Of a DNA stretch of 64,000 nt, positions 1,847 through 63,704 are shown piece by piece (positions within the stretch are counted from its first letter, which is position 1; every line of letters begins with the position of its first letter). The position numbers were made by a program, and so were the translations under genes. Source of the DNA: Candidatus Heimdallarchaeum aukensis (GTDB lineage Archaea; Asgardarchaeota; Heimdallarchaeia; Heimdallarchaeales; Heimdallarchaeaceae); NCBI GenBank assembly GCA_021513695.1, contig CP084166.1:1376001-1440000 (forward strand), read 5' to 3'. Under the pieces are notes generated by a model, which saw nothing but the letters and a program-made list of their open reading frames with translations, made no database searches and had not been told where the DNA came from.

Positions 1847-3982
1847 ATGGTGTTTGAAATTAGTATTACATGTCCAAAATGTAAGGGAAAAGGAAAGATA
1901 CATAAAGAAAAGACTACATGTCCTGCTTGTTATGGTGTAGGAAAAACTTCTTTTTCCTTGAGTGGTAAAGGCGTAGAAGGAGATATTTGCAAAAAATGTA
2001 AAGGGACTGGAAAAATCACAACTTATGAGAAATGTCCAGTATGTAACGGAAAAAGAACAGTATTCATATGTAAGAATTGTAAAAGTATAATGAAAGCTCC
2101 AAGTAGATCAGGATTATGTCCTGCTTGTGAAATACAAAAAAAGCCCATAGTTTACAAATTGCGCCCACCAATAGATTCACAACTTATTAGGAATGGTATG
2201 GTCTTTATAGGAAGAGTAGACCAGATCAAGAATTTTGGAGTTTTTGTTAAACTAGCTGAAGATGCTAAAGTTTTAATAAGAAAAGAAGATATGAGCGACG
2301 AATATGCTTGGGATTTAGGAGAGGAAGTCCAAGTCAAAATCAAAAATGTTAGCGATTCTGGCAAACTTTACGGTAAGTCCGTAAACATAAAAGATTACTC
2401 TCTGTTACCAATTAGAGGAAGAGTAAGAGCTGTCCAAATCAAAGATATAACACATGAAAGAGTGGGAGCATTTTTGTCATTTAAAGCTCAAGTTGTATCT
2501 ATTTTACAAACTTCTGGACCAACTAGATTTACTTTTGCAGATGCTACTGGTTCAATAAACGGTGCAGCATTTATAAAAGCAGGAGAAAGAGCTTTTCCTG
2601 AAATCGTTGAAGATATGGTCGTAGAATGTTTTGGAGAAGTAACAGAGTTTAGAGATTCATTACAGATCGAAATTCAAGACATTGAAGCTCTTGAAGAAGA
2701 AGAAACAAAGAAATTGTTAAATGAAATTGAAATTGCTTTGGATAAGAAAGCAACTCCAGCAAAATTAGATTTTTCTGTTAAATCAGAAATACTTACAAAA
2801 TTAAAACCAGATATTATTAAAGCAGCAAAAAGAATAAGAAAAGCAATTTTTACAGGGCAACCAATTTATATCAGACATCATGCAGATGCAGATGGTGTCG
2901 TAGCAGGTTTCTCGGTACAACAAGCTCTTATCCAGTTGATGGAAGAAGAAGGATATGATGCCGATACAATAAGAATTAGAATAAAAAGACTTCCTAACAA
3001 ACCACCATTTTATGATCCCATTGATGTTGTTAAGGATTTAGATTTTGCTTTAGCAGATAAAGAAAGATTTGGAGATAAACTGCCTTTAATTATTTGTTTA
3101 GATTTTGGTTCTTCATTAGAATCTATTCTTCCATATTTACAGATAAAAGCATTAGGTCTAGAAATAATTGTAGTAGACCATCATTTTCCTGATAAGAAAA
3201 TAAGAGAAATTGTCGATCTTCATATCAACCCTTATTTTGTAGGAGGAGGTTATGAGATTTCTGGGGGAATGTTAGGTTATGAACTTGCAAGATTCATACA
3301 CCCTACGATCATCACTGATTCGATGAAACATTTACCAGCCATTGCAGGACTTATGGATAGAGTTGAAGGAGACGAGATAAAAGAATATATTAAGTTAGCA
3401 AAGGAAAAGGGCTATTCAGAAGAAGACTTGAAGACAATAGGTATTGCTGTAGATTATGAATTATACCAATTAAAATTTAGTGAAGGAACAAATTTGATGA
3501 AAATTCTATTTGGAGTAGACACCGACATAGAATGGCATAAGCAAATGTACAAAATCTTGGGTGAAGAAGCGAAAAAGTTGATGGATAATACTCTAAAAAG
3601 TGTGCTTCCACATGTTAAACAAAAGACTCTAGAAAATGATGTCTTATTAACTCAAATTGATGTTGAACTTTTTTCACACAGATTTACATTTCCTAATCCA
3701 GGAAAAATTACAGGAATGGTTTTTGATCACTTTGTTGAGAACAATGAAGACAAGCCCGTAGTTACACTTGGTGAAGGTCCTGATTTTCTCATTTTACGTT
3801 CTAAAGGGTTAGCTATCAACTTTCCTGAAGTTGTAAAGTTGATGCAAGAGAAAATACCTGAAGCTGATGTTCAAGGAGGAGGACATGAAGTTGTGGGTTC
3901 ATTAAAATTCTATGAAGGAACAAGAGAGAAAGTGCTTAACTTTTTCATTAAATATTTGGCCAAATCCTCTCTTGCTCTTTAA
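1847..3982 (+). CDS. DHH-family phosphoesterase (RecJ/HAN-like nuclease) with N-terminal DnaJ-type zinc-finger repeats and an S1/OB domain
   Basis: 711 aa. It has four CxxCxGxG repeats (CPKCKGKGKI, CPACYGVGKT, CKKCKGTGKI, CPVCNGKRTV) plus a further CxxC..CxxC ribbon. An S1/OB-like segment follows (GMVFIGRVDQIKNFGVFVKL). The DHH motifs 'IRHHADADGV' and 'VVDHHFPD' come next, then a DHHA1-like C-terminus with GGGHE. Confidence 0.75.
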   Translation: MVFEISITCPKCKGKGKIHKEKTTCPACYGVGKTSFSLSGKGVEGDICKKCKGTGKITTYEKCPVCNGKRTVFICKNCKSIMKAPSRSGLCPACEIQKKPIVYKLRPPIDSQLIRNGMVFIGRVDQIKNFGVFVKLAEDAKVLIRKEDMSDEYAWDLGEEVQVKIKNVSDSGKLYGKSVNIKDYSLLPIRGRVRAVQIKDITHERVGAFLSFKAQVVSILQTSGPTRFTFADATGSINGAAFIKAGERAFPEIVEDMVVECFGEVTEFRDSLQIEIQDIEALEEEETKKLLNEIEIALDKKATPAKLDFSVKSEILTKLKPDIIKAAKRIRKAIFTGQPIYIRHHADADGVVAGFSVQQALIQLMEEEGYDADTIRIRIKRLPNKPPFYDPIDVVKDLDFALADKERFGDKLPLIICLDFGSSLESILPYLQIKALGLEIIVVDHHFPDKKIREIVDLHINPYFVGGGYEISGGMLGYELARFIHPTIITDSMKHLPAIAGLMDRVEGDEIKEYIKLAKEKGYSEEDLKTIGIAVDYELYQLKFSEGTNLMKILFGVDTDIEWHKQMYKILGEEAKKLMDNTLKSVLPHVKQKTLENDVLLTQIDVELFSHRFTFPNPGKITGMVFDHFVENNEDKPVVTLGEGPDFLILRSKGLAINFPEVVKLMQEKIPEADVQGGGHEVVGSLKFYEGTREKVLNFFIKYLAKSSLAL

Positions 3983-4044
3983 ATATTCTTTTACATTCAT
4001 TTTTATTTAGCAAGTTTTTTATTTAAGTAAAATAATTTCATACT

Positions 4045-5712
4045 ATGAGTTACGTAGAAAAAGCATTATATCAATATATAAAGGGAATATTTGTAGATGG
4101 TTTTAAAGTTCTGTTTAGTAAGAAATATGTTGTATATACAAGTATATTCTTAGCTTCTATCATAAGTACGACAGTTTTGTATATTCTCCAAGCATTCCAA
4201 ATAAATACTGCAGTTGACCTAGGTAATTTGGCTTCATTATTCTTGAAGATTGAATTAGCACTTGCTTTAACATATTTTCTAAGTGGTTTAATCTTAGCTA
4301 GGTGTCCAATTTACTTTTGGATAATTCCAGTGGTAATTTTGACAGGTGGTCTAGTTGTGGTATTTTATTTTCTTCCGGACATATTAAATATTATTCCTGA
4401 CTTAAGCCCTTATTTTGCAGTCATTTTTTATTTGTCTTGGATTGTACTATCAGTCTTTCTTTCATTCTCCCTGTCAAGAAACTTTTTTGGAAATAAATAT
4501 TTGGGAAGCGCTCTATTCTTAGGTAAAAAGAAAAACGAAGGAGGAATCCTATTTTCTGGTATTGTTTTTGTCGTGGCATTAGTTAATCTTGCTTTATCTG
4601 TTTACTTACTCCGCTTAAGTATAATGAGTCTTTTTACCCCAAATAAACAGTTCTTTCTCCTCGTAGCTTCAGTCGCTTCAATAATATCTACAACAATCAT
4701 TTTTGCTATTATCTTTAAATTGGGTACCTATGATGATGTTTTTTATACAATTATTGCATTTTATTATGTTTTTACTAGTTACATTCTCTGGAAATTAGCT
4801 TATTACTATTTTACATCATCAGATATTGGAGAAATTACTGTTTCAAATGTTGACGTTATAATAAGTGTATTTACTAGTTTGTTCTGGGCTATCTATTCAA
4901 TGAGTAGTTATGGAAGAAAAATTATACAGATTAAAGCTTTAGATGAAGAACTAGAAAAAACAGAGAAAATCATTAAACAAGAAACATTAGAGGAACAAAA
5001 AGAGTTTGAGAGAATTAAAAGTATGAAGATTCCCCAAATTAAAATCACAGACGATGACTCATGGCTAGAAAAAAGGAAGAAAATCCAACAGATGAAAAAA
5101 GCAGAAAAAGAAAAATTGAAGGCTTTAAAGAAATTCAATAAGAAAAGAGAAAAAAGAAAGAAACTTGCTCAAGTAAGATTAGAAGAAGCTAAAAAAGAAA
5201 CAGAAGAACGTATTGCGAAATCTAAAGAAAAGTGGTTTATTTTTAGAATCCCAGACCTTTTAGGACCAGACGGTGTATTATTAACTATAATGGGAATGAT
5301 TCTCGGATATCATGTTACCAATATCCAATTTCTTTCTCAAGAAGATTTATTTAGTTCAATTTATTACTTAAGCTCTGACAGATTGTTTGGTTTAAGAGAT
5401 AAGTTTGCCATTGTATCAATAATGGTTATTATTGTCATATTTTTAATAAGCTACGAAACATCAGAAAAATTCAGAAAATATGCCTCACCAGAGCTGTACA
5501 GGTTAGAGATCTTACCTTCTTTTGATGAACTGATGGAACTTATCGAAAAAGTGAGAACTGGAGAAGTTTCATGGCAATCAATAGCAAAAGACATAATTCT
5601 ATCAGGGGCTAAGGCGGCAGTTGGAGCAGCAGCCACAAAGGCCTTTATAACTCCTAGCAAAACAATTGCTCGTAAGTTTAAGAAGTTGATTTCGAGGGAT
5701 GAAGAAGGATAA
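4045..5712 (+). CDS. Polytopic membrane protein with a Lys/Glu-rich coiled-coil segment
   Basis: 555 aa. Several hydrophobic helices sit in the N-terminal 300 aa. A charged coiled-coil region follows (KEKLKALKKFNKKREKRKK), then another TM segment. No recognisable catalytic motif. Confidence 0.45.
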   Translation: MSYVEKALYQYIKGIFVDGFKVLFSKKYVVYTSIFLASIISTTVLYILQAFQINTAVDLGNLASLFLKIELALALTYFLSGLILARCPIYFWIIPVVILTGGLVVVFYFLPDILNIIPDLSPYFAVIFYLSWIVLSVFLSFSLSRNFFGNKYLGSALFLGKKKNEGGILFSGIVFVVALVNLALSVYLLRLSIMSLFTPNKQFFLLVASVASIISTTIIFAIIFKLGTYDDVFYTIIAFYYVFTSYILWKLAYYYFTSSDIGEITVSNVDVIISVFTSLFWAIYSMSSYGRKIIQIKALDEELEKTEKIIKQETLEEQKEFERIKSMKIPQIKITDDDSWLEKRKKIQQMKKAEKEKLKALKKFNKKREKRKKLAQVRLEEAKKETEERIAKSKEKWFIFRIPDLLGPDGVLLTIMGMILGYHVTNIQFLSQEDLFSSIYYLSSDRLFGLRDKFAIVSIMVIIVIFLISYETSEKFRKYASPELYRLEILPSFDELMELIEKVRTGEVSWQSIAKDIILSGAKAAVGAAATKAFITPSKTIARKFKKLISRDEEG

Positions 5713-44772: not shown

Positions 44773-46017
44773 TTATATTGTTGTTGGAAACTTTGCATAA
44801 GACCTAAACTCTATCCAATCTTCTAAATGTCTATTGATTATATTTTCAATTTCATCCTGGTCTAGTTTTCTTGCAACTGATTCATCTGATGTTAATAGTG
44901 CCATAATATATCTTTCATTTTTGAACTCTAAATCTCGTAATATAAAAATCTCATTTGTTTTTTCTTCGTCGTCTAAAACATATCTTCTTATTCTTAAGAA
45001 AGGTTCTCTCATATTTGCTATCGTTTCTATTGCTTCATAGTATGCATTATGAGATAATTCTTCTAGCTTTTCATTTTTTGAGTACTGGGCAAAACAGATG
45101 TTACTTCTGAAATCATATAAACCAAAAAATTCTGCATTTAAAGTTTCAGCTACTTGTTTTGATGCATTTGCGATATAATCTTGAATCAAACTTATGTTTC
45201 TAAATATGTGCGAGAATGCACCCAATATAGAAGAGCGTATATGAACACTTGTTCTAAAGATTCCTCTTGCAGGATCAAAGGTGGGGACATTAGAATGTAA
45301 ATATTGGACCATTGAGCCAAAGATGGAATTAGCTTTCTCACTTAAAACAAAATCAGGATCAGATTTATGAAAGAATATGGTCCATGGAACATCTAATTTA
45401 AGTTTTTGAGTGACATTAACAATCTGTTTTAAATATTCAAAGCTTTCTTCATATCTATCTTCAGCTTGAACATCTACTACATAGATAATTGTGTCTGTTC
45501 CAATAAAGTACTGTTCAGGATTGTTTAGATAGTCATCTCTATATATTTTCTGTCCTCCTAATTCATGTAGATGAATATCAAGACCAAAAACCTCTAATTT
45601 TCCACGTAAAAGTCCTCTTGTTGGCGTTAGTGCATTCAACTTTTGAAAAAGTAATGAAAAAGCTCCTCTATGTTTCAAGGCTATAGAAAGTGAGGTTTTT
45701 CCTACATTATCAATTCCTGCTAAAATAATTTTAGCTCCAGAGGTTATTTTTTCAGTTTTTTCTACCAATAAAAGTTTGCTTGCAGCTATCCAACTATCTA
45801 TACGCTCTTTTGGAAAAAGTTTTGACAGATCACTATAGTGCTTATTCCACTCTTTTGCTAATTTTTCAATTGTTACCAAACCAAATTTTTCTAGTGATTT
45901 CACCTCACTTTCTCTAATATCTAAGAGAGCTATTACTGGCAAATCAGCTAAATTATCTTCTTTCCTATAATCCTCTTTCAATAGCTTTTCTTTTATATCT
46001 AACACTTTTTTCACCAA
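44773..46017 (-). CDS. Ras-superfamily small GTPase (Arf/Rag-Gtr-like G domain) with N- and C-terminal extensions. The C-terminal extension is possibly a roadblock-like CRD.
   Basis: 414 aa. G1 is 'ILAGIDNVGKTSL'. The switch I Thr lies in 'LTPTRG'. G3 is 'HELGGQ' (WDxGGQ-type). G4 is 'FFHKSD' (HKxD, as in the Rag/Gtr family). About 150 aa follow the G domain. Confidence 0.62.
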   Translation of the reverse strand: MVKKVLDIKEKLLKEDYRKEDNLADLPVIALLDIRESEVKSLEKFGLVTIEKLAKEWNKHYSDLSKLFPKERIDSWIAASKLLLVEKTEKITSGAKIILAGIDNVGKTSLSIALKHRGAFSLLFQKLNALTPTRGLLRGKLEVFGLDIHLHELGGQKIYRDDYLNNPEQYFIGTDTIIYVVDVQAEDRYEESFEYLKQIVNVTQKLKLDVPWTIFFHKSDPDFVLSEKANSIFGSMVQYLHSNVPTFDPARGIFRTSVHIRSSILGAFSHIFRNISLIQDYIANASKQVAETLNAEFFGLYDFRSNICFAQYSKNEKLEELSHNAYYEAIETIANMREPFLRIRRYVLDDEEKTNEIFILRDLEFKNERYIMALLTSDESVARKLDQDEIENIINRHLEDWIEFRSYAKFPTTI

Positions 46018-46193: not shown

Positions 46194-48203
46194 ATGTTTT
46201 TTACGGATAAACAGCAACGAATGGAGAAAAGAAAATTGCGTGCACGTAGATTAAACAAAATACTGTTGATTACATTATTATTAATTACCACTTTTTCGGT
46301 AAGCGTATTAGGAAGAGCATATTTTTCTTCAGTTAGTGATTTTGGAAAGACAGACCTAAGTTATTCGAAAAATAATATCGTAGCTTTTGACACCAATGAA
46401 CCCATAATTGACGGGGATTTGGAATCTTATGAAGGAGAATGGGCTAATGCTACAGTTTATAGTAATATAATAGATGGGATAAATTATACTATTACCTTAA
46501 AAGCCAATGAGACTCATCTTTTCTTTGGTATAAGTTATGAGACTAATTTGTTTGTCTCACTCACAGAAACTAACGCAAGCATTCCTCACACTTGGTATGC
46601 AATTGTCTTTGACAGTAACTTTGACAAAGAATTTGGAACAGAACTTGTTCCTGAAGATACTATTTTGTTTAACTATCAAGAAAAAGATGCAACTGACGCT
46701 ACTTTGAATGGTACAGAAACTAATTCATTGGCTTTGGATGAAGATTTAGGAGGAGAAGATAACACAATAGGTGCTATTCAAACAGATCTTTTTGTTGAAG
46801 AATACACTGTAACAATAGAAATCGCTAAAGAATTAAACTCAGGAGATAAGGAAGGGAATGATATAGCCCTAAACCCAAGCGATGCTATTCTATTTGCTTT
46901 AATTCCATTTGCTAACCATACGGATGTATTCAATAATACCGAGGTTCCTTCATTAGAATGGAATACTTTAAGATTAGAACCCACACAAGAATTCTACACA
47001 TATATAGAAAATACCGAAGATCTGTCAGTAGTAACCTACGTTTCAGATTCAGTAAGAACAAAGAGAGTAGAGTTTAATTCAATAGGAAATATGTTAGAAG
47101 CCTATCAATTAAATTCTCAATTAGCAAATAAGGATAATTTTGAGATTACAACTGAAAATCTCAACGATGTTGATCTATTTATTATGGCAGGAAATCAAAA
47201 ATCCCTAACTTCTAGCCAAATATCTGTTTTACGTTCATATTTGACAAATGGAGGAAGTATACTCCTTATTGCAGATGAAGTGAAAAATGAAAGTTCAATT
47301 AATGAATTCTTACGAATGTTCAATATGGAACTATACAATTCAACACTCTACTCAAACAATACTGCCATCAATGAATCTCTAACTTTTGATCAAACAACAC
47401 TTGCACAACTACAATATTTACAAGAAGATAGTGCTTTTACAGAAACAGAATTCAGTAATATCTTTTACACAGGTACAGCAATAAAAAACATTTCTGCCTA
47501 TGGAGAAACCATTTTATTTGGACAAGATGCTGACTTATATCCGATCCTTTCAAAAGAAGGAGAATTCTTCATCAATTTAGGTGAAAAAACAGGATACAAT
47601 AGCACAGAAGATATTGCGATAAACAATGTGACTTTGCAAACTGCTTTAGAACTAAAATATGGAGGAAAAATGATTGTTTCTGCCTCAGCTGACATGTATA
47701 ATTCATCAAATCTTGTATTTGGTTCAAATAAGATGTTACTGTTGAAAGAGATACAATGGTTACTTAACTTCAGATTCAGAATAAGCTATGAAAACTTTAA
47801 CGTCCCTCAGACAAAAGTTAAAGAGGGAAATCCAATAGAAATGAACATTAGCGTTACAGGAGATAACGATACAGTTCTAGCAAATGTTAAAGTACAAGGA
47901 AGAGTGCTTGTTCTTAAATCAGTTGTTTCTTCTGTTGAACTTAATGCTTCAGAAAACAAAATCGATTTCTATGGACAAATTGTTCCTGAAACTAAAGCTT
48001 CATGGGTTGACATTGAGATACTGATGCACAAAAGAGGATATGGATATAACTACACTGAACTAGTAGAAGTTTTAATTGAAAAACAAATAGAAATTCCTAT
48101 AGCGGTAGATTACGTGTCTTTAATTGTTTTTATAGCTTCCATTGGATTAGCTATAATAGGAATGATAACTATAAGAAGACACAAAATTCAAAAAGAAGAA
48201 TAA
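46194..48203 (+). CDS. Surface or secreted protein with an N-terminal signal/anchor, an N-glycosylation-sequon-rich ectodomain and a C-terminal TM anchor
   Basis: 669 aa. The N-terminus is 'LLITLLLITTFSVSVLG'. More than 20 N-x-S/T sequons are present. The C-terminus is 'VSLIVFIASIGLAIIGMITIRRHK'. Confidence 0.45.
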   Translation: MFFTDKQQRMEKRKLRARRLNKILLITLLLITTFSVSVLGRAYFSSVSDFGKTDLSYSKNNIVAFDTNEPIIDGDLESYEGEWANATVYSNIIDGINYTITLKANETHLFFGISYETNLFVSLTETNASIPHTWYAIVFDSNFDKEFGTELVPEDTILFNYQEKDATDATLNGTETNSLALDEDLGGEDNTIGAIQTDLFVEEYTVTIEIAKELNSGDKEGNDIALNPSDAILFALIPFANHTDVFNNTEVPSLEWNTLRLEPTQEFYTYIENTEDLSVVTYVSDSVRTKRVEFNSIGNMLEAYQLNSQLANKDNFEITTENLNDVDLFIMAGNQKSLTSSQISVLRSYLTNGGSILLIADEVKNESSINEFLRMFNMELYNSTLYSNNTAINESLTFDQTTLAQLQYLQEDSAFTETEFSNIFYTGTAIKNISAYGETILFGQDADLYPILSKEGEFFINLGEKTGYNSTEDIAINNVTLQTALELKYGGKMIVSASADMYNSSNLVFGSNKMLLLKEIQWLLNFRFRISYENFNVPQTKVKEGNPIEMNISVTGDNDTVLANVKVQGRVLVLKSVVSSVELNASENKIDFYGQIVPETKASWVDIEILMHKRGYGYNYTELVEVLIEKQIEIPIAVDYVSLIVFIASIGLAIIGMITIRRHKIQKEE

Positions 48204-54997: not shown

Positions 54998-57430
54998 TTG
55001 AATAATATGGCATTCGATGATTTAATATCCTACTTTTGGTCTTATGTTACATCAGACACCAAAATTATCTTAGGTCTTTTTATCGCGTTAATTGGGCTTA
55101 TTTTTTTAATTTCAGAGGTTTATACAAAACTAAAACATGACACAACTAGCGAAAACATGGTATTATCCGCAATTGTGCTAATATTTGGTTTAATTTTATT
55201 TTTCCTTCAAGATTGGTTAATAGCAATAGCATTTAGTTTCTTCATTTTAGCAATTTATCAAACATGGCAATTAAGAGAATCTCCTGTATGGAGAGAATTA
55301 ATGATCACTTCAGTAGCTACTTATTTTGTATTTTTAGTAGGGACAGTTGCTGACAAAGTTTACGAAATTGTTAAAGGAGAAGAAACAGAGATATTTACTG
55401 GTTGGGCTTACAATTTAATGATTTATGTTTTCCTTATTATGGCTTTAATTTTCTTCGGGAAAAAGTTCATTTTAGTAACAAGGTTTATGTCTCCACAAAT
55501 ATTGTATCTAACACTGTTTGCATTTGCCTATCTCGCGTTATGGACAGTTGGTAAATTTATTCCAAATTTTGACAATCTCACTTTAAATTATTTACCTATA
55601 AATCCTGAGATTTCAAAAAGAATTATTTTTCTTTCTTTTGGACCTTATGAAATAATAATCATTTTATCATTTTTCTTATATTTTATTTCAGGTTGGCTAC
55701 TTGACTTATTATTAGGAATAAAACGTACAGATGATGAAAGATTAAGGAAACTAGTCTATGAAGTTAAAGAAAAATTAGGGATTAAAAAGCAAATAAAGAT
55801 CGGAACAGTGAAAGCACCTATTCTCAACGCAATGGCTTATGGTCCTTTTTTTGATCAAAGAGTAGCCTTTATTTCTAATGATTTGAGTGAATTTAGCGAC
55901 GATGATATCAGAGGAATAGTCGCACATGAATTAGCCCATAACAAGAGAGCACATGTTGTTTGGCTACAAGTAATTTCTTCAATGGAGATGATAATAAAGA
56001 AGGCATTCTTGCTTCCTGCAACAACACTAGATTATGCTGTAGTAAAAGAAAATATTCCTTTCATCCAATATTTCTTTCTTAGTTATGGAATTATTGCTTT
56101 TTTGATGATATTTGTTAGAATCATGGAAGGAGATGCAGATAGGAAAACAAAGGAAATTGGATATGGAATAGAACTAGCTCAAGCACTATACAAGTTAGAA
56201 GGATTTTATCAAGGAATAGCTGGAGATTTCGGATTAAATGTGCAACTTCTAACAGGAAAAGAATTTACAGAATCAGAGAAACTTCGTTTTAGAGGAGAAG
56301 CAGCTATCTCTCTGTATACTCAATTATATAAACCAAGTAGATGGGCGATGTTCTCAAATATTTTCATGTCTCACCCAAGAACATCATTCAGAATTGTAGC
56401 AGCTATTGATGATAGCCTATCCCCAGTAAAAGGTGCATTATTACCCTATTGGTTAATTTTACCTAATTTCATAAGAAAAAAAGCTGTAAAGGACCTAACA
56501 AAGAAGAGAGACACATTTGATGAATTAATATCAAGCAGATTTAGAGAATACTATGGGAGTGAAGGTGTCAAGCAATTCTTGGAAATAACCCATGTAAATG
56601 AATTATATCAAACTTATCTAGGTAAAAATGTTGTTGCGTTCGATAAGACAGAAAATACAATTATTTCTGGGAAAGCAGAAGAATTAATAATTAAAGAATC
56701 GATTTGCCGTCCTTTACAACTACTCATTATTACAGAAGAAGGAGAGCGACCAATATATGTAACCGATTACGTCATTAATGAAGCTGAAATAGGTAAAAAA
56801 TATATCCTAAAAAATGGAAAAATGGGAGAACTAAAATCCTATATCGTTAAAGAAAAAAGCAACAGACCTATCTTCATTCTTGTTGATCACAGAGAAAAGG
56901 AAGTAAAAAGTTATTCAACAGGAAAATCGCTTGATTATTTACTTTCTAAAGTTAATCAACAATTATTCATTTACAAAGATGGAATTGATCAGATTATCAA
57001 GTTATCAAATATTAAAGTTGCTGAAACTTACGATGAAACAATATTTGATTTTGAGGAAACAAAAGGAGAACACTTTACTGTAAAAGGAAAAGAGCTTATC
57101 ATTGAATTTCCTCCAGTTCTATTAAGGATTAGAGGTAAAAACAAAGAATTGCGCTATCAACTATTAGAAGGATTAAAAGGTATGTCAGTCATTTTATACA
57201 CAAAAGAAGAGATAGAAGTAGGAATAGCTTGCAAGATTAAAGATATTGAAGAAGATAAATTAACTTATGAGACAAGAGAAGGAGAGAATAAAGTACAAAT
57301 AAGTAAAATAGACTATGTTACTGTGTATGCAGACAAACCAAAACTGTTCCTGAAAAAGCACTTAAGCGCAATTGATAGATTTCTTATCTGGTGGGAAAAT
57401 AAACATAATGATAAATACATTTTCCCCTAA
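54998..57430 (+). CDS. Membrane zinc metallopeptidase (M48/M56-like HExxH) with a large C-terminal soluble domain
   Basis: 810 aa. About 8 TM helices surround 'GIVAHELAHNKRAHVVW' (HExxH). A C-terminal region of about 350 aa is of unknown function. Confidence 0.58.
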   Translation: MNNMAFDDLISYFWSYVTSDTKIILGLFIALIGLIFLISEVYTKLKHDTTSENMVLSAIVLIFGLILFFLQDWLIAIAFSFFILAIYQTWQLRESPVWRELMITSVATYFVFLVGTVADKVYEIVKGEETEIFTGWAYNLMIYVFLIMALIFFGKKFILVTRFMSPQILYLTLFAFAYLALWTVGKFIPNFDNLTLNYLPINPEISKRIIFLSFGPYEIIIILSFFLYFISGWLLDLLLGIKRTDDERLRKLVYEVKEKLGIKKQIKIGTVKAPILNAMAYGPFFDQRVAFISNDLSEFSDDDIRGIVAHELAHNKRAHVVWLQVISSMEMIIKKAFLLPATTLDYAVVKENIPFIQYFFLSYGIIAFLMIFVRIMEGDADRKTKEIGYGIELAQALYKLEGFYQGIAGDFGLNVQLLTGKEFTESEKLRFRGEAAISLYTQLYKPSRWAMFSNIFMSHPRTSFRIVAAIDDSLSPVKGALLPYWLILPNFIRKKAVKDLTKKRDTFDELISSRFREYYGSEGVKQFLEITHVNELYQTYLGKNVVAFDKTENTIISGKAEELIIKESICRPLQLLIITEEGERPIYVTDYVINEAEIGKKYILKNGKMGELKSYIVKEKSNRPIFILVDHREKEVKSYSTGKSLDYLLSKVNQQLFIYKDGIDQIIKLSNIKVAETYDETIFDFEETKGEHFTVKGKELIIEFPPVLLRIRGKNKELRYQLLEGLKGMSVILYTKEEIEVGIACKIKDIEEDKLTYETREGENKVQISKIDYVTVYADKPKLFLKKHLSAIDRFLIWWENKHNDKYIFP

Positions 57431-57898: not shown

Positions 57899-58930
57899 TT
57901 ATATATAGAAGTCTAAAGTTCTTTGCTTCGTTAGTGGAATCGCATCAAATCCTCTTCTTTTTAATTCAGAAGCAAAATTAAGAGAAGAACCATAGATTGT
58001 ATACACTTTCCGAGGATTACATCGTTCTACAATTTCAATTAGTTCATTAAAATCGGCATGGTCACTAATAACTATCCCATGGTCGATTGACATTTGAAAC
58101 TTATATCTAGGAAAATTACACCAACCAGAAAAGGCAAATAATTTAACATTATATTTTGACCTCAAATGTTTGAGAAAGCCGTTTCTTCCACTCATTAAAG
58201 GAGAAAACAAAATCCAAGGTTTTTCGTTTGCTAATAGATTATTCTTTTTCATATATTCATAGGAATTATAATTAAAACATATATTCGGGTTAACTGACTC
58301 TAGTATTTTCTGGATTTTTAGATTCGAATCATGTAAAATCAAATTATCAGAAAGATTAGAGAATTTTTCATATAATATTTGGGCTTTACCATAAGGATAA
58401 CCCATCAGCACTACAGGAATATTTTTTGATAAATAGTCCTCAATGAGATCTTTCGCTCTTTTAATCTCTTCTTCAAAAGGTGGAAATTGGTACTTAGGTT
58501 CTCCAAAGGTAGATTCAATGATTAACGTATCACAGTCTTTGGGTTGAAAAGGTTCAATTAATTTTCCTTTTCTTTGAATAGAAACATCACCAGTGTAAAT
58601 TATCCTTTTATCATTAGAATCGATTTGTAAAGCTGTAGAACCAACGGTATGTCCACTTGGAATTTGAGTAAATTTCACCTCTTCAAATTCTAAAAATCTA
58701 ACGAAATTGTTTGCCTTTAACCTTGGAAAAAAGTGTTTTAATAAAGATTCAGTGTAAGAACTACTAAGAATAACAGTATTTTCTAAAACAGATCTAGTTG
58801 TATGATCAGAGTGAGCGTGACTTACAAAAAGTAGATCTGTCGTATTTTTTCTTGTGACATCACAAGTAATAGACCAAGCTCTATCAGTTATTTGAATACC
58901 AGAATTCTTTATAATCTTCATTTCAACCAA
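57899..58930 (-). CDS. Metallo-beta-lactamase-fold hydrolase, beta-CASP-like (SNM1/CPSF/ligase-associated exonuclease type)
   Basis: 343 aa. Motifs are 'FVSHAHSDHT' (HxHxDH), 'PSGHTVGS', 'IYTGDVS', 'IIESTFGE' and the C-terminal 'ISDHADFNE'. Confidence 0.68.
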   Translation of the reverse strand: MVEMKIIKNSGIQITDRAWSITCDVTRKNTTDLLFVSHAHSDHTTRSVLENTVILSSSYTESLLKHFFPRLKANNFVRFLEFEEVKFTQIPSGHTVGSTALQIDSNDKRIIYTGDVSIQRKGKLIEPFQPKDCDTLIIESTFGEPKYQFPPFEEEIKRAKDLIEDYLSKNIPVVLMGYPYGKAQILYEKFSNLSDNLILHDSNLKIQKILESVNPNICFNYNSYEYMKKNNLLANEKPWILFSPLMSGRNGFLKHLRSKYNVKLFAFSGWCNFPRYKFQMSIDHGIVISDHADFNELIEIVERCNPRKVYTIYGSSLNFASELKRRGFDAIPLTKQRTLDFYI

Positions 58931-58967: not shown

Positions 58968-59618
58968 TTATTCAAGTGGTATAGAAACTACCATTATGTC
59001 TTTTTCTTCTACTTCATCTTTGACTATTTTCTTTATGACATCTTTTGCTAATTCTTCCATCTCTTCAATTGTTAAATCTTCTTTGTACTTTTCTTTAAGA
59101 ATGGAAATTGCTTCTGTATCTCCTTCTCCTATTGCTTTTGCTTTTACAGAGATTACTCCGCCACCAGGGTCTACATAATACAGAGATGATCCTGTATCAT
59201 CTACTCCTCCTATCAACAATCCTACTCCAAAAGGCCTTACTCCTCCTTGTTGAGTGTAAAGTTGGCAGTAATCTCCAATTTTTGTAGATAATCCCTTAAT
59301 ATCTGTTGGGAGATCATAGGTCATTCTAAATATTTGAGCTTCTAGTCTTGCTCTTGAAATTAGTACTCTCCCATCTGCAGCTACTCCTGCAAAGGTTGCA
59401 TATACTTTTTCATCTATTTTATGTACTTTGGCATCTGGTTCGTTTAAATCAACGACTCTTAATAAGCCAGCTAGTACAACACCATTTTTACTCTTTATAC
59501 CTACTGCTATGCTTCCTCGTCTTACGGATTCTCTTGCATATTCTACTTGTATCAATCGTCCTTCAGGACTATACATGATTGAAGTTCTATCATATCCCAT
59601 TGATTGTGGACCTAACAT
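58968..59618 (-). CDS. psmA: Proteasome alpha subunit
   Basis: 216 aa. The N-terminal alpha-type signature is 'YDRTSIMYSPEGRLIQVEYA'. Confidence 0.88.
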   Translation of the reverse strand: MLGPQSMGYDRTSIMYSPEGRLIQVEYARESVRRGSIAVGIKSKNGVVLAGLLRVVDLNEPDAKVHKIDEKVYATFAGVAADGRVLISRARLEAQIFRMTYDLPTDIKGLSTKIGDYCQLYTQQGGVRPFGVGLLIGGVDDTGSSLYYVDPGGGVISVKAKAIGEGDTEAISILKEKYKEDLTIEEMEELAKDVIKKIVKDEVEEKDIMVVSIPLE

Positions 59619-59619
59619 T

Positions 59620-60306
59620 TTATAACTCCTCCAATATTTTCTTTATCTCTTCTTCAGTTAACCAACGGATTCCATCTTTGTTTACAACCAATGCATCCAT
59701 ACCATTTCCAGTTGCTGTATCTCTGCTAATTGAAGTTGATAGTGCTCTTAGTCCTAGTTTAATTGCTTCATCTTCTGTAAGACCTTCTTTCCAGAAAGCT
59801 TCTAATACACCATAAGAGAAGAGCGAACCTGAACCTGTTGAAGCATAGTCTTCATCAATTATTGCACCAGAAGCATCCAAATTATAAACGTGAGGACCAT
59901 ATTTATCTAGACCACATACTAACATTGCAACATAGAACGGCATGTAAGATCTAAACTGTTCATATAGTATAGAAGCAAGAAGATTTCCTGCCATTTTTGT
60001 TGTTGGGGGATAACCTCTGTTTAGTTCATATAGATTTAAGTTAGCTTTAGTAAGGTTAACTAAATATTGGGCATCAGCTACTAAACCAGCGATCGTTGCA
60101 ACAGTATAATCATTTAATTGGTGGAGCTTTTTAGCTCTCTTCGAAGCAACGAAGGTTCCTGCAGAAGCTCGTCTATCAGTAGCAACAACAACACCATCTT
60201 TAAATCTAAGAGCAACAGTAGTTGTCCCTTTCATTGGATTTTCAAATGGATTTTGTTGTCCATAATTATTCATCATATTCATTTTCAAACCTCTATTTTT
60301 TTTCAC
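59620..60306 (-). CDS. psmB: Proteasome beta subunit (with propeptide)
   Basis: 228 aa. The propeptide is followed by 'G|TTTVALRFKDGVVVATDRRAS' with the catalytic Thr. Its stop lies 1 nt from the psmA start. Confidence 0.88.
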   Translation of the reverse strand: MKKNRGLKMNMMNNYGQQNPFENPMKGTTTVALRFKDGVVVATDRRASAGTFVASKRAKKLHQLNDYTVATIAGLVADAQYLVNLTKANLNLYELNRGYPPTTKMAGNLLASILYEQFRSYMPFYVAMLVCGLDKYGPHVYNLDASGAIIDEDYASTGSGSLFSYGVLEAFWKEGLTEDEAIKLGLRALSTSISRDTATGNGMDALVVNKDGIRWLTEEEIKKILEEL

Positions 60307-60458
60307 TAATAATGTGATTGTTTCTAAATATCAATTATCTTTTTCCTTTATAATGACTCACTTTTTACAGATTTTGAGTAAGTAAAATGAAGAATTATAA
60401 GAAATACTCACAATTCGTATATAAAGATATATTTATTATATTTAATAACATTTGAATA

Positions 60459-61154
60459 ATGAATGCAATGAATCTGCATAGAGATGATTTTGAGAAATTC
60501 CAATATAGTGAGCCTAACTTAGGAAACTTACCATATGACTTTTTTTACTCAAATGAATATAATTACATTACACTCCCTGAAGTGCAAGTTCTCTTTGCTT
60601 TATCAGATTCAAGTGTATCATATACATTCTCCGGACTAAGAAAGAAAACTCAATTACATCAATATAAAATCTCTAAATCTTTAAAAAGGTTACAAGAGCG
60701 AGACTTAATTGATAAGGAACAAGATGGAACTTATTCCTTAACAACAAAGGGAGAAGAATTTTCTCGAAAACTAGTCAAGGAACTATTAAAAAGAAAAAAT
60801 ATTTCTTATGAAAAATATGACGATTTTCAAACTCAAAGGGTAAAATTATTTACAAAAAGAAGTTTAGACCAACATTATATTAAAAATAAGCTTTATGGAC
60901 GTTGGTTTGGTGACTTCAGGTTTTTATACGCTAAAGAAGATGGAAAAAGTTTGAAACTTTGTTGGGAAGATACAGAAAATTGGCAAATAACTTTAGAGAA
61001 CACTTCGAATAACCAGTTGTACATCCAATTTAATCACAGAGATTATGAAAAAACGAAAATTGACAACTTCACTAACTGGCTATCAAAAGAGTTACTTACA
61101 GAAGTTGATATTCCATCTTATTCAATAGATAAAGAGTCAGAAGTCTACAATTAA
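60459..61154 (+). CDS. Hypothetical protein with a winged-helix (MarR/ArsR-like) DNA-binding segment
   Basis: 231 aa. 'LSGLRKKTQLHQYKISKSLKRLQERDLIDKEQDGTYSLTTKG' looks like a wHTH recognition helix plus wing. Confidence 0.42.
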   Translation: MNAMNLHRDDFEKFQYSEPNLGNLPYDFFYSNEYNYITLPEVQVLFALSDSSVSYTFSGLRKKTQLHQYKISKSLKRLQERDLIDKEQDGTYSLTTKGEEFSRKLVKELLKRKNISYEKYDDFQTQRVKLFTKRSLDQHYIKNKLYGRWFGDFRFLYAKEDGKSLKLCWEDTENWQITLENTSNNQLYIQFNHRDYEKTKIDNFTNWLSKELLTEVDIPSYSIDKESEVYN

Positions 61155-61184: not shown

Positions 61185-62930
61185 TTAATTTTCAAAAACC
61201 GAATGCATGTCTGAAATATCGTCTTCTGGTGTTTCTGCAGTGGGGTGTAGAAACACTTCTCCATCTAATATCGTAAAGGGAATCCTCCTTTTATCGATCC
61301 ATGGTGCAATTTCTCTAAATTCTTTAAAGAGATCATTACTTACAATCATTGCTGTTTCCTCTTCTGCTATTCTAAGAATAAATTTATCTCCGTCAACTCT
61401 CGCAGGTAGCATCTTTATAGCTCCTTCTTTCACTAGTTGATCCAACCTTCTTTGATTATCAATTTGATACCTAAGTGCAGCATCTGCAACCGTAATTATT
61501 TTCTTAAAGTTTGACCGACTAAGTTTATTGATCATTGCTTCAATGTTAGCTAACTTCGGATGACCAGCAGCATCTTTTTCTTCCCAAGCAACATTGCTTC
61601 CATCAACTATGACTACATCATAAGGATAAGTTGTTTCTGGAAATATGCGTTCTTGCTCACCTTTAGTTATCTTTACTAATCCTTTAATGATGTCTCTTGA
61701 GAAATAACCTATTCCTAGAAGTACTGTTATTAAAAGAATGATAATTGTAATATTTTTATCAAATGGATTTAACGGTTCGTCATTAGATATAATCTGAATA
61801 TGAAATACACCACTAAAATAAAAACTTGTAAACCAATAAATATCAGGTTGAATTTCCCAAGCTATTTGAATCGAAAGGGTGATCGTGGTATTGCCAGCTT
61901 CTATGGGTTTATCCTTTAAGATTATATGATGCCCTGAAAAGCTTGGAGATATAGCAAATATTTCTCCATTAACCTCTGAAAAAGCTATTAGAGGACAAGT
62001 GATTTCATGTTCAATATATACAACATCATCCTCAAAATTTGCTATGTTATAAGTGATTGAATAGTCTTTATTTAGTGAAGCATTCACGGAAAAATGAACA
62101 TTACTAATTGAAATATTAGGATAACAGATTATATACAAAGGCTCACTTAATACAATAACAGGATTATCTGGATCATCTAGATTTGTAAATGAAACCTGAT
62201 ATGAATGTTTTTGGTATAAAGGCTCATTTGTAAAAAACCTTATTGTTCCTTTGTAGCTTTCTCCACTATTTAACATTAGATTCAAATATGGAAGATAGAT
62301 AATGGGACTAGCTTCTGTCCCTTGCCGATTAACCAAGGCTGAGATAGTTACATTAGTTACAGCTGTACCCCCAACATTTACCAACTGGAAGTCTACTTCA
62401 GTAGTTGAATTACGTTTGAGGATTATTTTATTATTAACAAATGTCATTTCTATTTGCCCACTAGGGAGAACCTCGAGGGTAAAAATAGCAGTTTGATAAG
62501 TGGTTATGACATTTGTTCCATTAACAAAACTTTCGACTGAATAGTTTCCTGCTGGCTGGCTGTAAAAATCTTTTTTGTTGATTTTTACTACATAATCAGT
62601 TGAAGAATTACTAACTATATGCTTGTTTTCAATGATGTTTGCAGTTTCATAAGAGATGTTATAAAAAATAGTAGCATCACCATCAATAGGACTACCATTT
62701 AACCAAGACAAATGGAAAAATAAAATTAAATCATTTATTCCGCGTTTAATTACAGAAGAATTCAAAGATAAAGTAAAATTCACTTCTGATTTCTCTGAAA
62801 AATTATAATAATTCGAAACTGGTTCTTGTGAAACAATTACTTCAGAATTTGACATTGGAGAACTTATTAAGAAACTTGAGAACATGAAGAATGTGAGGAT
62901 AGATAGCGTAATTACTAGCTTTTTTTTCAT
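61185..62930 (-). CDS. Single-pass membrane protein: signal peptide, large extracellular domain, TM helix and a cytoplasmic Zc3h12a-type NYN ribonuclease domain
   Basis: 581 aa. The N-terminus is 'LVITLSILTFFMFSSFLISS' and the TM is 'ITIIILLITVLLGIGYF'. The C-terminus 'VVIVDGSNVAWEE...IITVADAALR...AMIVSNDLF' matches the NYN/Zc3h12a motifs (vviDGsNva ... ivSND). Confidence 0.65.
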   Translation of the reverse strand: MKKKLVITLSILTFFMFSSFLISSPMSNSEVIVSQEPVSNYYNFSEKSEVNFTLSLNSSVIKRGINDLILFFHLSWLNGSPIDGDATIFYNISYETANIIENKHIVSNSSTDYVVKINKKDFYSQPAGNYSVESFVNGTNVITTYQTAIFTLEVLPSGQIEMTFVNNKIILKRNSTTEVDFQLVNVGGTAVTNVTISALVNRQGTEASPIIYLPYLNLMLNSGESYKGTIRFFTNEPLYQKHSYQVSFTNLDDPDNPVIVLSEPLYIICYPNISISNVHFSVNASLNKDYSITYNIANFEDDVVYIEHEITCPLIAFSEVNGEIFAISPSFSGHHIILKDKPIEAGNTTITLSIQIAWEIQPDIYWFTSFYFSGVFHIQIISNDEPLNPFDKNITIIILLITVLLGIGYFSRDIIKGLVKITKGEQERIFPETTYPYDVVIVDGSNVAWEEKDAAGHPKLANIEAMINKLSRSNFKKIITVADAALRYQIDNQRRLDQLVKEGAIKMLPARVDGDKFILRIAEEETAMIVSNDLFKEFREIAPWIDKRRIPFTILDGEVFLHPTAETPEDDISDMHSVFEN

Positions 62931-63005
62931 TTAATGACCTCCAATGTTATTAGTGAAGTAATAATTCCATTATAGTATATTCTCTTAATAAATCTTTATC
63001 TTAAA

Positions 63006-63704
63006 GGGTGTGCGGGAATACCCCTGATTCTGTTCGGAAGTCATTTACATGAAACTTCTTAGCAACATTCATCTATGCGCTTTACCCGACTTAGAAAGTC
63101 CTATTTAAGCTTGCACCACGATGTATGATCGTTTCATCGCTCCCTCTTTACTCCTCAATAACTTCATAGGACACCCTATGTGTCATATCATTGTCAACGT
63201 AAAGAGGACGTGTCGTTTCTATTTCAGGGACCACGTTCTCACGTGATGGGTTTGCACCCATATCGCTTGTTAGGTGTCAGGAGGTTCCTCAGGTTTAACC
63301 CGAAAGTTGCTCTCCCGCTCACCCTAAGAGTACTATGTTTTTATCAAAAATAAAGATAGCTGTCACAGATTGCTGACATTCTCTCACGCTAAAGCGTGGG
63401 AGGTTCTTGATTCTACAGAGAGAAGCAAAGGGCGTGCCACCGCCCCGTTAATGACTCCCGCAGGGAAACGTTCACCCTGAGCGAGACCTATATTTAAACA
63501 ACCTACAGCGTCTCTATGGGGCTCTAAGCCACAATCAAGACATTTGAATAATCTTTTTCTTTTGAATACGTGCGTAGAACGACAACGGGGGCAAATAGAG
63601 GAACTGTGTGCTTCTATAACTTCTTTTACGCTTATACCGTATTCTTCTGCCTTTGCTTTGATTCTCGTAACGAGATAATTATGACTCCAAAAATTGTGTA
63701 CCAT
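63006..63704 (-). mobile_element. Remnant of an IS200/IS605-family element: tnpB 3' fragment plus a GC-rich downstream (right-end / possible omega-RNA) region
   Basis: An abrupt GC-rich block of about 700 bp (about 50% GC by eye) lies in about 30% GC surroundings. Hairpins occur at the tnpB stop, e.g. ctctcacgc-taaa-gcgtgggag at 63381..63402 and tgtca-cagattgc-tgaca at 63361..63378. Confidence 0.4.
63384..63704 (-). pseudogene. tnpB: Truncated TnpB (IS200/IS605 OrfB) gene: only the C-terminal RuvC-III / zinc-ribbon part is present
   Basis: 106-aa ORF. 'RIKAKAEEYGISVKEVIEAHSSSICPRCRSTHVFKRKRLFKCLDCGLEPHRDAVGCLNIGL' fits the TnpB C-terminal pattern (..TSqtC..CG...R.f.C..CG...dRD.NAa.NI). Stops occur within 8 codons upstream of the Met, and the AT-rich 5' flank does not code. 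Confidence 0.6.

Follow-up and report, generated by a model that had tools for sequence, protein, structure and literature searches.

In animals, NYN nucleases of the Regnase type have an important part in deciding the fate of mRNAs. Regnase-1 reportedly targets mRNAs under translation at the endoplasmic reticulum (ER) membrane, and NYN domains of this type are reported to act as dimers; Ire1, a single-pass sensor of the ER, carries a cytosolic RNase that is switched on by oligomerization and cleaves membrane-associated mRNAs. We know of no characterized eukaryotic NYN protein that is embedded in the membrane and carries an extracellular domain. Matelska et al. (PMC5499597) describe the RNase_Zc3h12a family as "two evolutionarily separated groups," place PRORP in the same structural group, and list the prokaryotic Zc3h12a-like proteins with "unknown function in bacteria." The PMC and bioRxiv literature that we searched holds no assayed member of the prokaryotic group, and no archaeal member of the Regnase-type family appears to have been studied. 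Here we analyze a 64,000-nucleotide stretch of the Candidatus Heimdallarchaeum aukensis genome (contig CP084166.1, positions 1,376,001–1,440,000; hereafter the window), in which a complete gene at 61185–62930 (−) encodes a 581-aa protein predicted to join a large extracellular domain, through one transmembrane (TM) helix, to a cytoplasmic Zc3h12a-type NYN domain. We call gene and product TM-NYN; positions are those of the window unless a locus is named, with the strand in parentheses.

The TM-NYN open reading frame (ORF), taken from the window's ORF list, is not a chance product, because an identical protein is already deposited (100% identity; the Candidatus Heimdallarchaeum aukensis record, a hypothetical protein, comes from a 3.08-Mb contig) and because 47 full-length or near-full-length homologues exist, of 455–597 aa and 40–62% identity. 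Named homologues are labeled Heimdallarchaeota, Heimdallarchaeaceae, or "Asgard group," and family members appear in databases as "hypothetical protein" or "NYN domain-containing protein." Direct reading of the sequence places a Shine–Dalgarno-like GGAGGT at 62937–62942 (−), 6 nt ahead of the ATG.

Two segments of the protein are hydrophobic on the Kyte–Doolittle scale, one at residues ~4–25, behind MKKK, and one at ~393–415. The first belongs to a signal peptide or signal-anchor (residues 1–29; 62844–62930 (−)) made of MKKK, 18–20 hydrophobic residues, and SSPMSNS, with its hydropathy peak at residues 5–23; AlphaFold2 (AF2) models a helix over residues 2–21 and disorder over 22–45. This is the least conserved region, with a mean pairwise identity of 0.28 in the Heimdallarchaeaceae clade that we call subfamily 1. 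The ectodomain follows (residues 30–391; 61758–62843 (−)), modeled as three tandem MG/Ig-like β-sandwiches and bearing conserved N-glycosylation sequons, and leads into the single TM helix, NITIIILLITVLLGIGYFSRDI (residues 392–415; 61686–61757 (−); hydropathy peak 2.18; AF2 helix 392–422). A basic stretch, SRDIIKGLVKITKGEQER, stands directly behind the second hydrophobic segment, and a basic juxtamembrane linker of about 23 aa (residues 416–437; 61620–61685 (−)) connects to the Zc3h12a/Regnase-type NYN (PIN-like) nuclease domain (residues 438–563; 61242–61619 (−)), which Pfam, profile comparison, AF2, and Foldseek all recognize. The conserved juxtamembrane motifs, YFSRD ... FPE..YP, include invariant Y409, S411, R412, D413, and Y435 and near-invariant F430 and E432. 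Only 18 residues remain between the NYN domain and the C terminus, and the cytosolic part consists of linker and NYN domain alone. An initial annotation, made from the sequence without database searches, had proposed this order of signal segment, ectodomain, one TM helix, and C-terminal NYN domain for the same ORF, and hydropathy and Pfam bear it out.

We predict a single-pass, type-I-like protein whose mature chain runs Nout–Cin, with an external β-rich domain and a cytoplasmic NYN domain, because charge bias, sequon distribution, hydropathy, and the AF2 helices agree on this orientation. Across 53 family members, lysine and arginine within 15 TM-flanking residues average 0.36 on the ectodomain side vs. 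3.5 on the NYN side, and sequons occur at 3.17 per 100 aa in the ectodomain vs. 0.40 in the C-terminal part; the cytoplasmic placement in the initial annotation therefore stands as a prediction, and neither measure places the NYN domain outside the cell. In the window's protein, residues 30–400 comprise 9.7% Asn, 10.2% Ser, and 7.0% Thr (27% together) and hold 14 N-X-S/T sequons, compared with 5.9 ± 2.1 in shuffled sequences (0 of 2000 shuffles reached 14), whereas the C-terminal 157 residues hold none; an Asn/Ser/Thr-rich ectodomain with many sequons had been noticed at the outset. Among orthologues, the sequons at N78, N91, and N137 are universal (100%), and the one at N193 is present in 95%. 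Genes for OST3/STT3/ribophorin are present in Heimdallarchaeum genomes (PMC8813620), and the ectodomain is probably N-glycosylated.

The nuclease assignment is supported at the levels of family, profile, and fold. Pfam places RNase_Zc3h12a (PF11977) on residues 438–556 (E 9.2e-16; 58.4 bits against a cut-off of 23); an NCBIfam scan found no family for the protein. Searched against the PDB, a profile of the domain matched ZC3H12C, ZC3H12B, and ZC3H12A (E 3e-13 to 3e-11), KHNYN (to 7e-10), and PRORP2 (about 1e-3), as the initial Zc3h12a-type assignment would lead one to expect. The full-length AF2 model gives the domain low confidence (pLDDT, the predicted score of the local distance difference test, about 55), likely because the alignment is nearly invariant there; modeled alone with a more diverse alignment, it reaches a mean pLDDT of 88.4, with a core above 94. 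With that model, the top 20 Foldseek matches in the PDB are all ZC3H12A/B/C or KHNYN (TM-score 0.66–0.71; E 1e-8 to 1e-6), and PRORP structures rank below all ZC3H12 and KHNYN matches.

By identity, the domain stands nearest to bacterial stand-alone proteins of about 140–156 aa, one labeled Gemmatimonadaceae bacterium (39–40% in alignment A2; 41–46% by BLASTP), and reaches only 20–26% with eukaryotic domains. A special tie between eukaryotes and Asgard archaea was rejected on these figures (~40% to bacterial vs. 20–26% to eukaryotic domains), which are identities and not a phylogeny; a CRISPR-associated NYN protein of B. fragilis was likewise rejected as a close relative, being of the MARF1/LabA type. 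Marks of the prokaryotic group are an ADAALRYQI motif and D-x-D in place of D-D. The CCCH zinc finger is not present behind the NYN domain, and the protein's two cysteines (C269 and C312) both lie in the ectodomain. We read the domain as belonging to the prokaryotic branch of PF11977, in agreement with the published two-group split (PMC5499597); lacking a CCCH finger and falling in that branch, the protein is therefore a member of PF11977 and not a Regnase orthologue.

Its active site appears intact. The motifs VVIVDGSNVA (D443 and N446) and MIVSND (S531, N532, and D533) are present, and the predicted metal-binding set comprises D443, N446, D483, D513, D515, S531, D533, and E537. Every one of the 42 orthologues has these residues and N532 unchanged, and active-site differences in subfamily 2 and the bacterial stand-alone homologues are limited to three conservative replacements, namely G514 to A, S531 to T, and E537 to D. 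Profile alignment pairs D141, N144, D226, S242, D244, and D248 of Regnase-1 with D443, N446, D515, S531, D533, and E537, respectively. Of the five catalytic aspartates of Regnase-1, D141, D225, D226, D244, and D248 (PMC5499597), four thus have direct acidic equivalents (Asp in three cases, Glu at D248), and the remaining one is displaced: D225 falls on G514, with invariant D513 two residues upstream, and this D-x-D spacing is the rule throughout the prokaryotic NYN group. An extra acidic residue, D483, lies within the ADAALRYQI motif. Such conservation is the pattern expected for an active enzyme; the acidic catalytic motifs recognized in the initial annotation are retained, and the aspartate constellation is there in every orthologue aligned.

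AF2 models the ectodomain as an all-β region (residues 47–381; pLDDT 86–95) of three β-sandwich domains, at about residues 47–155, 158–262, and 264–382. Its structural matches are integrin legs, PECAM Ig, ASH/PapD-like domains, and the Haloferax S-layer glycoprotein; as modeled, it is a generic extracellular scaffold and not a recognizable ligand-specific sensor. Mean pairwise identities in subfamily 1 are 0.51, 0.51, and 0.41 for the successive β-sandwich domains and 0.85 for the NYN domain. The ectodomain is nonetheless under purifying selection, with invariant motifs: one in the first domain, at residues 59–68 (62727–62756 (−)), has the consensus ITRGEDDL, reads VIKRGINDL here, keeps R63, G64, and L68 invariant, and is a candidate functional surface. 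Among the homologue matches, no protein carries this ectodomain without the NYN domain. Confident β-sandwich models, selection, homology in both subfamilies, and the lack of any NYN-less carrier mark the ectodomain as functional rather than a spacer.

The complete layout extends beyond close relatives. Six further BLAST matches share the NYN domain alone, although four of the six are of similar length (538–587 aa). These represent subfamily 2, which by profile–profile comparison aligns to subfamily 1 with an hhalign probability of 100 over 506 columns at 23% identity, a span that takes in everything from the first β-sandwich domain through the NYN domain, and we take the whole architecture to be one family conserved across two deep subfamilies. 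An exhaustive hidden Markov model (HMM) search of 1.84 billion cluster representatives with a NYN-only profile returned 3,297 proteins at E ≤ 1e-3, of which 1,249 reach E ≤ 1e-10; the best 150 matches include at least 25 full-length clusters (50% identity), and several fragments, with the signal–ectodomain–TM–NYN layout. A scan of GTDB species representatives found 28 positive genomes, with one locus each. The full family is carried by 25 of the 28 loci, labeled Heimdallarchaeota, "uncultured archaeon," "archaeon," and, once each, Thorarchaeota and Promethearchaeati; at one Promethearchaeia and one Promethearchaeota (Loki-type) locus, the match is confined to the NYN domain.

Other NYN relatives differ in how they hold the domain. 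One of the loci matched in the NYN domain alone, L034 of a Promethearchaeia (Loki-type) genome, encodes at 3897–5411 (+) a soluble 504-aa tetratricopeptide repeat (TPR) protein that bears the same prokaryotic type of NYN domain at its C terminus, so Asgard archaea possess at least two architectures of this nuclease. In a Thermofilaceae (Thermoproteota) protein, from locus L038, a signal peptide and a shorter ectodomain precede a TM helix and a NYN domain. Simple N-terminal TM anchors or multi-TM regions occur in P0114, P0133, P0146, P0157, P0142, P0200, P0121, P0145, and P0135, the first four of which are simple TM-anchored relatives in the same clade. Membrane tethering seems recurrent in this NYN clade, and the simply anchored relatives suggest that membrane location itself matters for this group of nucleases.

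We propose, with a probability of roughly one half, that TM-NYN is a cytoplasm-facing, membrane-tethered endoribonuclease coupled to the cell surface, probably through clustering driven by its ectodomain. The proposal starts from the observed domain composition, catalytic-residue conservation, fold, topology signals, and family-wide conservation of the architecture; from these we infer that the protein is an RNase whose substrates lie near the membrane, that it is N-glycosylated, and that the ectodomain controls it. The NYN domain would cleave RNA in a Mg2+/Mn2+-dependent manner, like its eukaryotic structural relatives, and the short tether would confine it to RNAs close to the membrane, such as mRNAs translated there. 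The ectodomain would most likely set the clustering or position of the enzyme, its partner being a ligand, the cell envelope, or a neighboring cell. We favor control by clustering because a single TM helix relays little except oligomeric state, because Regnase-type domains are reported to be dimeric, and because 365 conserved extracellular residues exceed what an anchor needs.

Several points weigh against this proposal. The topology is a prediction from hydropathy and from the biases in charge and sequons. The residue aligned to D225 of Regnase-1, G514, is not acidic, the nearest aspartate (D513) standing two positions upstream. The CCCH zinc finger, which confers RNA specificity in Regnase, is absent and leaves substrate recognition unexplained. 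Finally, only generic β-sandwich scaffolds, and no known ligand-binding sensor, match the ectodomain, so a purely structural role is possible.

The genomic setting bears on how these alternatives are weighed. An archaeal RNase P RNA gene at 63008–63322 (−) (Rfam RF00373, full-length model; 178 bits; E 4e-52) lies 77 bp upstream of TM-NYN on the same strand. Among subfamily-1 loci that retain upstream sequence, it is upstream and co-directional in 23 of 23 GTDB loci, in L001, and in the window, with spacers of 76–162 nt (L003 and L004 duplicate the contigs of L010 and L025). On the other side lie a 231-aa MarR-like winged helix-turn-helix (wHTH) gene at 60459–61154 (+), with matches to MarR_2, HTH_45, and HTH_27 (E about 1e-5) and an uncharacterized C-terminal half; psmB, encoding the 20S proteasome β subunit, at 59620–60306 (−) (NCBIfam TIGR03634, 204 bits, under its cut-off of 224); and psmA, encoding the α subunit, at 58968–59618 (−) (NCBIfam NF003075, 239 bits, over its cut-off of 219). 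The order wHTH, psmB, psmA downstream of TM-NYN recurs in every subfamily-1 locus with enough sequence. RNase P RNA, TM-NYN, wHTH, psmB, and psmA are thus a fixed block in Heimdallarchaeaceae, one that had gone unnoticed in the initial annotation.

That annotation had recorded the wHTH gene as convergent with TM-NYN. The gene is indeed convergent, with stop codons 30 bp apart, and has Pfam support, but the arrangement is confined to the genus Heimdallarchaeum. In every relative examined other than the window and H. endolithica (L008), the wHTH gene lies between the NYN gene and psmB and runs in their direction, and the convergence is therefore an inversion specific to this genus (loci compared: window 60459–61154, L008 6783–7475, and L001 7963–8664). 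Orthologues of the wHTH protein share 36–45% identity, rising to 89% in H. endolithica. The inverted gene now diverges from psmB across a common intergenic region of 152 bp (60307–60458). Inverted repeats beside it were rejected as a recombination signature, the matches being weak and AT-rich (best pair, 22 nt with 73% complementarity).

TM-NYN probably has its own promoter. A BRE/TATA-like element, GATTTATTAAG, at 62984–62994 (−) is the putative signal, and 26 aligned spacers, taken from 62931–63007 (−) in the window and the corresponding stretches of L001–L033, share an AAnTTTATTAA-type element about 45–60 nt ahead of the ATG; this conserved element, together with an oligo-T run behind the RNase P RNA in most relatives, is the reason for that reading. 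Both features also led us to reject read-through into TM-NYN from the RNase P RNA promoter, a case that is less clear in Heimdallarchaeum, where the run is TTT only.

Further genes surround the block. Behind psmA, at 57899–58930 (−), is a gene for a 343-aa metallo-β-lactamase (MBL)/RMMBL nuclease whose best NCBIfam match, TIGR04122 (the model for a ligase-associated DNA-damage-response exonuclease; 141 bits), is under its cut-off; an MBL/β-CASP-like nuclease gene occupies this place in the window and about 18 GTDB loci and may be part of the conserved block. Upstream of the RNase P RNA gene, a 106-aa ORF at 63384–63704 (−) matches only the C-terminal TNB/zinc-ribbon part of a TnpB/Cas12f-like protein (PF07282, E 1e-16). 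No counterpart was found in 35 related loci (L001–L035), and the fragment is probably an IS200/605-type remnant inserted in Candidatus Heimdallarchaeum aukensis. A gene for an 810-aa peptidase M48-domain protein lies at 54998–57430 (+), and M48 genes stand a few kilobases from the cluster in L003 and L004. Farther off, a 414-aa Gtr1/RagA- and Arf-like small GTPase (44773–46017 (−)) adjoins a 669-aa protein with an IFT52 GIFT-domain match (46194–48203 (+); E 1e-7), both of the eukaryote-signature type typical of Asgard genomes.

Around divergent members the context varies. The order at L037 is psmB, psmA, NYN; L005–L007 show threonyl-tRNA synthetase (ThrRS), a 605-aa PIN_12-like protein, NYN, and an AlaX-like gene; in L036 the NYN gene stands between a metallophosphatase and an alkaline phosphatase, and in L040 between an α/β-hydrolase and a TetR-family regulator. 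L039 and L041 lie near polyprenyl synthase and inositol-1-phosphate synthase genes, and the Thermofilaceae locus L038 has glycoside hydrolase neighbors. The conserved protein of about 605 aa, which adjoins or lies near TM-NYN and ThrRS in subfamily 2 (L005, 2253–4070 (−); L007, 2145–3974 (−); L037, 1–1455 (−)), has an N-terminal PIN_12-like domain at E 1.4e-5, under the cut-off, and has no homologue in the window. RNase P RNA was not found near any divergent member examined, and tblastn found no homologue of the wHTH protein at L005, L007, or L036–L038. The block is a strong marker of Heimdallarchaeaceae, and the proteasome link recurs once, in another order. Inherited synteny is enough to explain most of the block, because all subfamily-1 loci form one family-level clade, and there is no universal partner gene. 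Beyond its use as a genomic marker for the family, the block is a new instance of linkage between RNA-processing and proteasome genes in archaea.

The strongest competitor to our proposal, which we regard as possible but doubtful, is a constitutive housekeeping RNase parked at the membrane after the logic of RNase Y or YacL, with the ectodomain serving as a structural envelope or S-layer-like part. One copy per genome in a block with RNase P RNA and the proteasome in Heimdallarchaeaceae, the extreme conservation of the NYN domain, and clade members with plain TM anchors and no ectodomain all fit such an enzyme. A mere anchor, however, needs no 365 or so conserved extracellular residues with invariant motifs, and both the narrow distribution of the family, which occupies a few archaeal lineages where a core enzyme of mRNA decay would be expected more widely, and the variable context outside Heimdallarchaeaceae speak against this reading.

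A stronger form of surface coupling, drawn by analogy with Ire1, strikes us as unlikely: the glycosylated MG/Ig-like ectodomain would bind a surface cue, whether a partner cell, a ligand, or some state of the envelope, cluster, and switch on the NYN domain, which would then cleave membrane-associated mRNAs. So read, surface sensing might be tied to RNA and protein turnover, hence the proteasome neighborhood.

Somewhat less probable again is a dedicated factor for RNase P and tRNA, or for the proteasome cluster, acting in the processing of the RNase P RNA precursor or pre-tRNA or in control of the psmBA transcript. Such a factor would account for the fixed block, and gene order speaks for it: the invariable co-directional RNase P RNA upstream and wHTH, psmB, and psmA downstream in subfamily 1, a divergent member again beside proteasome genes, and another sub-lineage placed between ThrRS and an AlaX-like tRNA-editing gene. 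Proteasome genes linked with RNA-processing genes are, moreover, well established in archaea, as in the exosome/proteasome superoperon reportedly described by Koonin and colleagues in 2001. Yet the oligo-T runs and the conserved BRE/TATA-like element suggest separate transcription units, the block survives inversion of the wHTH gene, and the synteny of a single family-level clade may simply be inherited. Divergent members examined lack RNase P RNA beside them, and several lack proteasome neighbors; a tether and an ectodomain are moreover hard to rationalize for tRNA or RNase P maturation.

It is very unlikely, in our judgment, that the NYN domain is a catalytically dead RNA- or protein-binding module that tethers a partner to the membrane. 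The glycine at the D225 position and the absence of an accessory RNA-binding domain would suit one, and inactive relatives exist, since RNase_Zc3h12a members carry 0–5 active-site residues (PMC5499597); against this, the other metal-binding positions together with D483 and D513 are invariant in archaeal and bacterial homologues, and D-x-D replaces D-D throughout the prokaryotic group.

Least probable of all is a defense or abortive-infection sensor or toxin-like module, whose ectodomain would sense a virus or competitor at the cell surface and set the cytoplasmic RNase free, with the wHTH protein as partner or antitoxin, the toxin/defense-like logic floated in the initial annotation: many prokaryotic PIN/NYN nucleases are toxins or defense effectors (PMC5499597), a more distant sweep for NYN homologues includes one (P0141) with a STAND/AAA ATPase fusion, the wHTH gene is adjacent in one clade, and the ectodomain diverges much faster than the NYN domain, but no PADLOC model matches TM-NYN (the wHTH protein drew only weak generic winged-helix matches), the gene is single copy in 28 genomes and, in the 25 subfamily-1 GTDB loci, sits stably beside essential genes in housekeeping surroundings and no defense island, the putative partner is missing from the divergent loci noted above and so is not universal, and the sole nearby trace of a mobile element is the TnpB fragment unique to this genome.

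A membrane-tethered endoribonuclease coupled to the surface thus remains the reading that we prefer. Its architecture and conservation are solid and unusual, and function, substrates, and regulation are what we infer from them. Our searches of PMC and bioRxiv gave no description of a transmembrane NYN protein in archaea, and the Heimdallarchaeum genome paper (PMC8813620) does not mention the locus; TM-NYN is a known nuclease domain in a conserved receptor-like architecture that is undescribed in the literature searched. Heimdallarchaeia, the archaea closest to eukaryotes, thus keep an intact NYN nuclease tied to a large, conserved, and probably glycosylated surface domain. Archaea lack, to our knowledge, homologues of RNase E and RNase Y, which organize RNA decay at bacterial membranes. 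Provided that TM-NYN is active, it would supply a tangible archaeal example, open to experiment, of RNA cleavage restricted in space; should the ectodomain control it too, the family would be a new class of signal transduction whose output is RNA cleavage.

Among described proteins, PRORP resembles TM-NYN weakly in sequence (Pfam E 0.004; PDB profile E 9e-4) and clearly in fold. The PRORP model PF16953 scores 17.2 bits, short of its cut-off of 39.1, and TM-NYN differs in having no pentatricopeptide repeat (PPR) or zinc-binding domains, in being membrane-bound, and in coming from an organism with a canonical RNase P RNA. RNase Y (TM, KH, and HD) and YacL/PIN.COG4956 (four TM, PIN, and TRAM), the latter noted as a PIN-like example (PMC5499597), are likewise cytoplasm-facing and membrane-tethered, by an N-terminal TM region. 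They have other catalytic and accessory domains, no large extracellular domain, and no homology to TM-NYN, and they are bacterial and widespread, whereas the TM-NYN family is confined to a few archaeal lineages. The closest NYN relatives outside the family are the prokaryotic stand-alone Zc3h12a-like proteins of about 140–160 aa, which have all the invariant motifs in common with TM-NYN but are soluble and consist of one domain, lacking a signal peptide, an ectodomain, and a TM helix.

Regnase-1 and the other ZC3H12A–D proteins, KHNYN, and N4BP1 belong to the same catalytic family and fold (PF11977), with D141, N144, D226, S242, D244, and D248 of Regnase-1 matched. TM-NYN departs from these eukaryotic members in lacking CCCH zinc finger, UBA, KH, and CUBAN domains and in its identity of only 20–26%; the reported action of Regnase-1 at the ER membrane nevertheless resembles the membrane-proximal action proposed here. 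Ire1 offers the nearest parallel in layout, being likewise single-pass with a sensor-like domain on the far side and a cytosolic RNase, and regulation by oligomerization is what our proposal would add to the likeness. The two are not homologous: Ire1 combines a kinase and a KEN-domain RNase with a distinct lumenal domain, whereas TM-NYN has a predicted metal-dependent NYN domain, three β-sandwiches, and no Pfam match to a kinase or KEN domain at E ≤ 1. Should the Ire1-like reading prove true, TM-NYN would be the first receptor-type RNase described in archaea and a prokaryotic precedent for membrane-localized, regulated mRNA decay of the kind known from regulated Ire1-dependent decay (RIDD) and Regnase.

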